DNA from: Shigella phage Henu11
DNA length: 64,000 nt
Strand: one strand, 5' to 3'
Sequence record: OM953433
Part shown: positions 31,859-32,410 of the stretch, in pieces
Layout: each line of letters opens with the position of its first letter
Numbering within the stretch: position 1 is the first letter of the stretch
The notes under the pieces: model-generated
What the model saw: only the letters and a program-made list of their open reading frames with translations
Databases searched by the model: none
Told to the model about the DNA's origin: nothing
Position numbers and translations under genes: made by a program

Positions 31859-32344
31859 ATGTTTTGTGCTAATAAAGATTGTGGCAACAAAGCCGTTAAA
31901 GGTGGAAAATATTGTTCACGCTCTTGTGCTGCAAAGGTAAACAACAAGAGTCATCCAAAAAGAAGACAAGAAGGCTCTTGTCATTCATGTGGAAAGCAAA
32001 CACCAAAATCAAGAAAGTATTGTGATGAATGTATTTCAAATGGTATTCTGAAACAATACAAAAACCCTGACGAAGAAAAGAAAGCAAAGTCACAACACGT
32101 TAAAAAGTCTCGTGACAAACTTAAGAGGGTTTTAGTTGATTACAAAGGTGGTTGTTGCTCAATTTGTGGATACAATAAGTGCATAAAGGCTTTAGAGTTT
32201 CACCACTTAGACCCTAATACAAAGGACTTTACAGTAGGACAAAAACACTTCTCTATAGAGGTAATGAAGTCTGAAGTTGATAAGTGTGTATTGCTGTGTG
32301 CAAATTGTCACAGAGAGGTGCACGAAGGAGTAACAATGCTGTGA
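31859..32344 (+). CDS. HNH homing endonuclease
   Basis: ORF track; Cys-rich N-terminus plus HNH motif EFHHLDP...CANCHREVH; sits inside the tRNA island. Confidence 0.8.
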   Translation: MFCANKDCGNKAVKGGKYCSRSCAAKVNNKSHPKRRQEGSCHSCGKQTPKSRKYCDECISNGILKQYKNPDEEKKAKSQHVKKSRDKLKRVLVDYKGGCCSICGYNKCIKALEFHHLDPNTKDFTVGQKHFSIEVMKSEVDKCVLLCANCHREVHEGVTML

Positions 32345-32410
32345 AAGCACATATGGATGTGCATTCGGCTGATAACCGAAAGGCAGAAGGTTCGAATCCT
32401 TCTCACAGTA
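32338..32410 (+). tRNA. tRNA-Ile (GAT)
   Basis: acceptor gctgtga/tcacagt; D-arm gcac-atatggat-gtgc; anticodon arm ttcgg-ctgataa-ccgaa; 5' end overlaps the HNH stop codon. Confidence 0.75.

Follow-up and report, generated by a model that had tools for sequence, protein, structure and literature searches.

The window analysed here, a 64,000-nt stretch of DNA from Shigella phage Henu11 (sequence record OM953433), carries an HNH endonuclease gene whose stop codon is located inside the tRNA gene that follows it. The questions raised by this locus are how a protein gene came to end within a tRNA-Ile and whether the shared bases have any consequence for the expression of the two genes.

The HNH/tRNA-Ile overlap and the insertion site

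ARAGORN identified 26 tRNA genes in the window, arranged in an array from 30455 to 35854. The features at the junction of interest were as follows.

31765..31841, + strand: tRNA-Met(CAT), left neighbour of the insertion, found by ARAGORN (Rfam score 56.9 bits); allele type of Sf16 and Sf18 (Mooglevirus)
31842..32335, + strand: inserted HNH cassette of 494 bp, delimited by junction comparison (position ambiguous by 2 nt)
31850..31855, + strand: Shine-Dalgarno-like GGTGAT, read from the sequence, 3 nt before the ATG in a 17-nt leader
31859..32344, + strand: HNH endonuclease ORF with an ATG start, 161 aa, from the ORF list, PHROG families and the alignment
32336..32344, + strand: last 9 nt of the ORF (AT GCTGTGA, read as Met, Leu and stop at its end), already present in empty sites
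32338..32413, + strand: tRNA-Ile(GAT), allele A, found by ARAGORN and Rfam, with an encoded CCA

The HNH start codon was located 17 nt downstream of the end of tRNA-Met(CAT) at 31841. At the other end the junction read ACA AT/G CTG TGA AAGCAC, the slash marking the first base of tRNA-Ile, and the overlap between the HNH gene and tRNA-Ile was 7 nt. The HNH stop codon TGA (32342-32344) occupied tRNA-Ile positions 5-7, within the 5' strand of the acceptor stem (GCUGUGA). The sequence-only reading from which this analysis started had placed this TGA in the first 7 nt of tRNA-Ile(GAT), and the ORF list, ARAGORN and Rfam all confirmed it. The tRNA (32338-32410) scored 60.0 bits against Rfam RF00005 (gathering score 29) with all four stems paired, and its sequence was identical to the allele of HNH-free Felixounaviruses; a G1-U72 pair and A8 in place of U8 are unusual features of this tRNA. 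For annotation, this means that bases may legitimately belong to a protein gene and a tRNA at once, and neither call should be trimmed. Elsewhere in the array, an unrelated protein gene also abuts a tRNA, the ORF at 34880..35677 ending 1 nt before tRNA-Ser.

Comparison with HNH-free loci, which had been proposed as a check on the sequence-only reading, revealed an insertion-site signature. In seven empty sites (Sf16, Sf18, REP5, Tf, NBSal004, BPS17W1 and skuden) the tRNA-Met gene with its CCA was followed by 2 nt and then by tRNA-Ile. In nine occupied sites the gap between tRNA-Met and tRNA-Ile was 495-496 nt (496 nt in the window) and was opened at the same point, the insert of 493-494 bp falling exactly in the position of the 2-nt spacer. 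The element is free-standing and is not an intron, and the unoccupied locus is correctly called an HNH-free site rather than the "intron-less site" of the earlier wording.

The spacer of empty sites is polymorphic (AT or AA), and this polymorphism reappeared at the right end of the insert, where KEP3 has AA like REP5 and the other carriers have AT like NBSal004. Since AT or AA is retained at the right end, the insert of about 494 bp was placed between the CCA and the spacer. A target-site duplication was rejected; AT flanks both ends in the window, but in KEP3 AT is found at one end and AA at the other. We also rejected the idea that the cassette leader derives from the 5' end of a former tRNA; ATTACGTTGG agreed with the Suspvirus spacer and tRNA-Ile allele C, ATTATGTTGG, at 9/10 positions. 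This likeness was not shared by the Felix-clade leaders and was left unexplained.

HNH-free allele A already reads GCTGTGA. As the final 9 nt of the ORF pre-exist without HNH, the cassette brings no stop codon of its own: it supplies the 17-nt leader and a 3'-open ORF, and the target supplies the last two HNH codons and the TGA. Every intact HNH copy ends GVT(M/K)L on the TGA of tRNA-Ile. The 7-nt overlap arises because an ORF without its own stop sits directly upstream of tRNA-Ile, and it is not a chance event calling for a statistic. The phase in use meets the earliest stop of the three, the other two ending at tRNA positions 33-35 and 30 nt past the tRNA, respectively. GGTGAT was common to all leaders of HNH-positive loci and may serve as the ribosome-binding site.

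The HNH protein and its relatives in tRNA arrays

The 161-aa ORF matched PHROG HNH-endonuclease families with E-values of 2.8e-34, 3.5e-24 and 1.9e-19, the matches ranging to 3.3e-5. When the window HNH was aligned with five relatives from other phages, C100, C103, H115, H116, C147, N149, C150, H151 and H155 of the HNH core were invariant in all six sequences. The core is located in the C-terminal half of the protein, with two CxxC pairs of the zinc-binding type framing the catalytic HH, the Asn and the distal His. Four further CxxC-type cysteine pairs were present in the N-terminal half, and no family was matched by the N-terminal 60 residues. The profile built from the six sequences matched the HNH (En) domain of LtrA (E=1.8e-4) and performed better than the single HNH protein, for which phmmer gave only marginal matches in the PDB. 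Pfam HNH models remained below their curated cut-offs (PF01844, 14.1 bits against 21.4; PF21368, 14.1 against 23), and the sub-threshold match to AI2M-like_HNH points to an LtrA-like domain too. As judged from the PHROG and profile evidence, which outweighs the sub-threshold Pfam scores, the protein is a member of a divergent HNH subfamily. A single-sequence AlphaFold2 model (mean pLDDT 43.8, pTM 0.26) was too poor for a fold search.

The dN/dS values among HNH orthologues were 0.05-0.38 (approximately 0.15 between the two clades), and therefore the protein is functional now or was until recently. In MET-P1-301 and OPT-SAL01 the ORF is cut short by the same frameshift, one nucleotide missing from an A-run, which reflects either decay or a sequencing error. 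No HNH paralogue was found elsewhere in the window. In Felix O1, two further gaps between tRNAs contain HNH paralogues, with 36-46% identity in the core.

HNH homologues of NBSal005 (T5-like), S-WAM2 (cyanophage) and M5.1 (Otagovirus) were located in tRNA arrays upstream of a same-strand tRNA, and their ORFs reach 10 nt into tRNA-Ala, 11 nt into tRNA-Asn and 15 nt into tRNA-Gly, respectively. A census was made of the best 80 IMG/VR relatives of the HNH, which formed 49 clusters at 70% identity. A tRNA was located within 1.5 kb of 68 of these best 80 relatives (38/49 clusters), with 323 tRNAs on the HNH strand and 46 on the opposite strand, and we judged the HNH relatives to be enriched in tRNA arrays over background. 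Ends inside the next same-strand tRNA were found for 27 of the best 80, and 8 more were within 30 nt of a tRNA; by cluster, 11/49 had an overlap and 17/49 an overlap or a gap of at most 30 nt. The commonest overlap among the relatives was 10 nt, in which the stop is the conserved tRNA U8-A9-G10 read as TAG. The reading phase into the tRNA was biased among relatives, and the bias was weak after related loci were collapsed. The junction geometry was not conserved: among relatives, 0 to 26 nt separate the codon of the last catalytic His from tRNA position 1.

Nuclease genes of phage tRNA arrays recurrently have their stop codon inside a tRNA, as can already be seen in public annotation. Our literature search turned up no paper presenting such a placement of HNH stop codons as a pattern. 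The pattern is unsurprising to specialists in phage mobile elements, and its width makes testable the 2008 idea of a homing endonuclease dose limited by tRNA processing.

Distribution of the cassette and origin of the tRNA-Ile allele

The window belongs to the Mooglevirus group: its terminase region was 100% identical to that of Henu12 and approximately 99% identical to those of the Mooglevirus phages Sf13-Sf19. The tRNA-array region of the window matched 277 Felix O1-like (Ounavirinae) records. HNH-like DNA was present at the same position in 11 of these approximately 277 related records, namely KEP3 (97.5% nucleotide identity to the window HNH), Felix O1 (two records), FO1a, MET-P1-301, garuso, Sl26, OPT-SAL01, L27 and S.Kent 1-2-1 (83-85%), and Henu12. 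The public Henu12 record stops inside the HNH gene, which is unannotated there.

The tRNA-Ile at this position had at least three alleles that differ in the acceptor stem: allele A (GCTGTGA...) in 46 records at ≥95% identity, allele B (TGTGGGT...) in approximately 116 records, and allele C (GTTGGGA...) in Suspvirus SUSP2. All HNH carriers had allele A (11/11), and HNH was found with none of the approximately 116 B alleles, counts that are non-independent because the records share ancestry and some are redundant, Felix O1 appearing three times in the database. The junctions in IMG/VR comprised one with HNH and allele A, none with HNH and allele B, one empty allele-A site and six empty allele-B sites. 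About 35 allele-A sites were empty, which is unexpected under efficient homing into allele A. The HNH genes of the window and Felix O1 were 84.8% identical at the nucleotide level and the backbones likewise 84-86%. As the divergence of HNH is similar to that of the backbone, the gene may be mostly vertically inherited within Felixounavirus and move rarely.

The origin of the cassette in the window was analyzed by site typing, in which sites were informative where KEP3 and Felix O1 agree (A-type) and differ from Sf16 and Sf18 (B-type). Identities of the segments around the insertion were as follows.

30400-31841: left flank, 97.4% identical to Sf18 and 87.8% to KEP3
31842-32337: leader and HNH, absent from Sf18 and 97.2% identical to KEP3
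32338..32460, + strand: donor-type tract of tRNA-Ile(A) and approximately 47 nt, 98.4% identical to KEP3 and 77.3% to Sf18
33311-34260: far right flank, 98.5% identical to Sf18 and 81.3% to KEP3

Between 30404 and 31830 approximately 125 of 135 informative sites were B-type (Sf-like), while from 32342 to 32456 all were A-type (26/26). The following segment, 32461-33310, was a mosaic of A-type and B-type sites, and 33331-34260 was again B-type (114/116). The switch from B to A occurs between 31830 and the left end of the insert, placing the left breakpoint at most approximately 12 nt from the insertion point. The window was the only HNH carrier with the B-associated tRNA-Met allele, and Henu12 was the only Moogle-like record in the list of allele-A sequences.

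These results show a co-conversion-like import, in which a Felixounavirus-type (KEP3-like) block of HNH, tRNA-Ile(A) and approximately 47 nt replaced the resident B-type tRNA-Ile; the window is the one clear recombinant of this kind that we documented. The tract from 31842 to about 32460 matches double-strand-break repair from an HNH-positive donor, a good though not proven reading. The same product could also be generated by ordinary recombination in a mixed infection without a break made by the nuclease. The view that a mobile endonuclease has inserted at a tRNA gene, put forward by the sequence-only reading, gained support from the precise insert, the sporadic occupancy and the donor-like tract. 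For phage evolution, the locus provides a clean natural case of a selfish nuclease carrying a tRNA allele from a Felixounavirus into a Mooglevirus.

Expression, competing explanations and known systems

Two promoter-like sites were found by consensus scan in positions relevant to HNH expression.

30398..30427, + strand: TTGACA-18-TATAGT, 11/12, with a TG extension, before the first tRNA
32429..32457, + strand: TTGACA-17-TATAGT, 11/12, just after tRNA-Ile

The sigma-70-like scan gave 8 promoter-like hits in the region, fewer than the shuffle mean of 14.5, and none in the 17-nt HNH leader. The site at 30398-30427 is a plausible one and is presumed to be the promoter of the tRNA precursor carrying the HNH ORF. 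At 32429-32457, TTGACA and the GTTG lead-in were identical in A-type and B-type relatives, and TATAGT was TATAGA in Sf16 and Sf18. Since promoter-like sites were found only before the array and after tRNA-Ile, HNH is most likely translated from the tRNA precursor.

The explanation that we favor, and consider probable as a whole, is that the locus represents a homing endonuclease gene of the HNH (His-Me finger) type, free-standing in a Felix O1-like phage tRNA array. In a mixed infection, the enzyme would cut at the tRNA-Met/tRNA-Ile junction of HNH-free genomes or close to it, and on repair from the HNH-positive genome the recipient would acquire a copy of HNH together with the adjoining tRNA-Ile allele. 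The occupied site is proposed to be immune because the junction is split by the insert. HNH would be translated from the polycistronic tRNA precursor. If RNase P cut at G32338, the HNH message would lose its stop together with the preceding 1⅓ sense codons (the G of ATG, and CTG) and become a non-stop message, and a ribosome terminating at the UGA would cover the acceptor stem of tRNA-Ile. Through this mutual occlusion, nuclease synthesis and tRNA-Ile maturation are proposed to exclude each other on one transcript, which would keep the nuclease level low. The general basis of this coupling model is that non-stop messages lead to tmRNA rescue in bacteria and that tRNAs are processed by RNase P. 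The sequence-only reading had described tRNA processing and translation termination as overlapping; this held as a structural fact, and the regulatory consequence is something we can only infer from it.

Two explanations compete with homing as such. HNH and tRNA-Ile(A) may have arrived together when co-infecting phages recombined in the ordinary way, homologously or illegitimately, with HNH a passenger that is inactive, decaying or cutting elsewhere. The whole tRNA array is indeed a mosaic, with A and B patches alternating between 32461 and 33310 without involvement of HNH, two HNH copies are frameshifted and many allele-A sites are empty. We nevertheless regard a passenger as improbable, given that the left breakpoint of the imported tract is at most approximately 12 nt from the insertion point, that purifying selection acts on the ORF in each of the two clades, and that the paralogues in other Felix O1 spacers and the relatives placed likewise in other phage families are typical of site-specific mobile endonucleases. 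A still poorer candidate, in our estimate very unlikely, is a domesticated HNH, acting as a nicking or processing enzyme or as a regulator of the tRNA operon, which would have descended vertically from an Ounavirinae ancestor and been lost often, the overlap being an adapted design. It would agree with the purifying selection, with an inter-clade HNH divergence that resembles that of the backbone and with the arrangement being kept in every occupied locus. However, each of the many losses would have had to restore the exact 2-nt spacer, more than 95% of relatives lack the gene and it is thus dispensable, and HNH is missing from all other Moogle-like relatives. Vertical descent also leaves unexplained why identity to KEP3 is 97% in HNH and 88% in the flank.

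A different matter is whether the position of the stop codon has any role. It may have no regulatory function and simply reflect the tight packing of a stop-less ORF within the array, the shortest possible C-terminal tail being the sole object of selection, a view to which we assign a little less than an even chance. The TGA pre-exists in HNH-free allele A, the phase used meets the earliest stop, the commonest stop among relatives is the conserved tRNA U8-A9-G10 as TAG, and the unrelated ORF at 34880..35677 comes to within 1 nt of tRNA-Ser. On the other hand, recurrence in unrelated T5 nucleases and the proposal made for T4 SegB (PMC2330249) suggest selection. Packing touches only the regulatory step and is compatible with the homing model. 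The opposite possibility, that a stop inside a tRNA is a selected, general design of endonuclease genes colonising phage tRNA arrays, is a speculative one that we hold to be rather unlikely. The HNH family would then be a tRNA-array specialist that inserts 5' of a tRNA and borrows its stop, mostly U8-A9-G10 as TAG, an idea to which we give the same low weight. If it were true, RNase P maturation would produce non-stop nuclease mRNA and tie nuclease dose to tRNA processing, and the element could take a tRNA allele of its own along into further genomes, including those of other genera.

Returning to the favored homing endonuclease gene, its closest known counterpart is ORF44 of Felix O1 (NP_944863.2; NC_005282, 25030..25515), an orthologue with 83% amino acid identity at the same tRNA-Met/tRNA-Ile insertion point, for which the same 7-nt overlap (tRNA-Ile 25509..25584) is already annotated in RefSeq. 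ORF44 differs in belonging to the other HNH clade (dS approximately 0.6) and in that its backbone and tRNA-Met allele are both of the Felixounavirus type. Six HNH copies are listed in the genome paper for Felix O1, which leaves the overlap and the empty sites undiscussed (PMC3185647). The homologues in NBSal005, S-WAM2, M5.1 and IMG/VR belong to the same HNH family (31-49% amino acid identity over the core) but differ in their target tRNAs and N-terminal regions and mostly use the U8-A9-G10 TAG, in contrast to the acceptor-stem TGA of the window. By profile, the closest solved relative is the HNH (En) domain of LtrA (PDB 5g2x and others), with the same CxxC...HH...CxxCH arrangement; that domain serves retrohoming within a reverse transcriptase/maturase, whereas the window HNH is small and stand-alone with a Cys-rich N-terminal half.

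[quoted passage not shown] The T5 nucleases were rejected as homologues of the window HNH, the best tblastn match in that region being hegA with E=0.17.

The system most similar in its biology is SegB of T4, a free-standing GIY-YIG enzyme whose gene lies between tRNA-Ile and tRNA-Arg and is transcribed in the tRNA precursor (PMC2330249). The segB gene and the tRNA genes beside it are preferentially inherited through the action of the enzyme, whose activity and homing have been demonstrated experimentally and whose recognition site takes in a conserved tRNA motif (PMC2330249). Its authors proposed that cleavage of the precursor beside the stop codon restrains expression, and the same idea was mentioned for F-TflI/II of T5 (PMC2330249). 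A literal overlap of stop and tRNA was rejected for segB, whose TAA was located 5 nt upstream of mature tRNA-Arg by RefSeq and sequence; the overlap is thus more literal in the window HNH. The tract in the window resembles the effect of SegB on tRNA markers of T2L (PMC2330249), although the two enzymes belong to different nuclease superfamilies and homing of the window HNH is what we infer from its sequence context. By sequence comparison, the window HNH gene probably encodes a free-standing homing endonuclease; it belongs to a family associated with tRNA arrays, and orthologues of it are annotated already. The interest of the locus lies in the intergeneric co-transfer of a tRNA allele and in its use as a test case for tRNA maturation limiting endonuclease expression, and its selfish-nuclease logic is that shown experimentally for T4 SegB.

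tRNA-Ile alleles and the leader of the HNH cassette

Three alleles of tRNA-Ile(GAT) were found in the Ounavirinae, with similar bodies and wholly different acceptor stems.

Alleles of Ounavirinae tRNA-Ile(GAT)
Window 32338-32413: allele A, acceptor stem GCTGTGA
L003 2371-2445: allele B, acceptor stem TGTGGGT
L100 (Suspvirus SUSP2) 899-975: allele C, acceptor stem GTTGGGA

In allele A, the near-universal U8 is replaced by A8 and a G1-U72 pair is present. Alleles A and B of the Felix O1-like type were also matched at 100% by the GenBank records MG065664.1, labelled Campylobacter phage A132, and GU169904.1, Staphylococcus phage SA1; mislabelled or contaminated assemblies are suggested.

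The leader of the HNH cassette contains ATTACGTTGG (window 31842-31851), which agrees at 9 of 10 positions with ATTATGTTGG of the Suspvirus locus (L100 894-903), a sequence composed of the spacer and the 5 nt that open tRNA-Ile allele C. An earlier target may have left this resemblance behind, or it may be due to chance. The HNH leaders of the Felix clade do not have the Suspvirus-like match.

Other features of the tRNA arrays

Tracts and genes in the tRNA arrays
Window 32429-32457: strong predicted promoter-like site, within the tRNA-Ile/tRNA-Arg spacer
Window 34880-35677: 265-aa ORF, occupying the tRNA-Phe/tRNA-Ser(GCT) gap
Felix O1 L001 2193-2269 (NC_005282 24936-25012): tRNA-Met(CAT), ARAGORN

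The 34880-35677 ORF ends 1 nt before tRNA-Ser(GCT), its mechanically assigned start lies inside tRNA-Phe, and its Sf16 homologue is annotated as "predicted receptor-binding protein"; it is another protein gene tightly packed into the tRNA array. The tRNA-Ile/tRNA-Arg spacer (window 32414-32689) is 275 nt long, non-coding and conserved. At approximately 32547-32577 it holds a hairpin-like stretch that reads GTGAGG...CCCTCA in the window versus CAGGAG...CTCCCTG in Sf16/Sf18, differences that look like compensatory changes, and some relatives (KEP3, Felix O1 and BPS17W1) carry an extra insert of about 90 nt at window position 32460. tRNA-Asp and tRNA-Lys are separated by 425 nt, within which a weak tRNA-like match lies at 31339-31413 (Rfam 30.4 bits, threshold 29). 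ARAGORN called no tRNA there, and the REP5 record has an odd 131-nt "tRNA-Thr" annotated at the equivalent place.

In Felix O1, the tRNA-Met(CAT) lies directly 5' of the HNH gene and is not annotated in RefSeq. This phage lacks tRNA-Arg(TCT), the expected place of which is taken by a paralogous HNH gene (ORF45). In both MET-P1-301 (L010) and OPT-SAL01 (L013), the HNH ORF is truncated by the same loss of 1 nt from an A-run at about codon 74; the explanation is either that the gene is a pseudogene or that the homopolymer was misread in sequencing.

Nuclease genes ending within tRNA genes

When the best 80 IMG/VR relatives of the HNH ORF were collapsed at 70% identity, 38 of the resulting 49 clusters lay in phage tRNA arrays, to which the family is thus largely restricted. 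Among the IMG/VR and GenBank loci (L016-L099), the end of the ORF was repeatedly contained in the downstream tRNA, most commonly 10 nt into it, with U8-A9-G10 serving as the TAG stop codon.

In the tRNA-Gly cases (L019 611-625; L039/L040; L065), the last catalytic His codon directly abuts the tRNA start, and therefore the conserved C-terminal A-G-[VL] of the family is encoded by the acceptor stem (GCAGGTGTC..., GCGTGCGTG...). This stretch is dual-coding.

The non-homologous T5 nuclease genes hegC, hegD and T5.069 (L111, T5 28-38 kb) likewise terminate inside the downstream tRNA.
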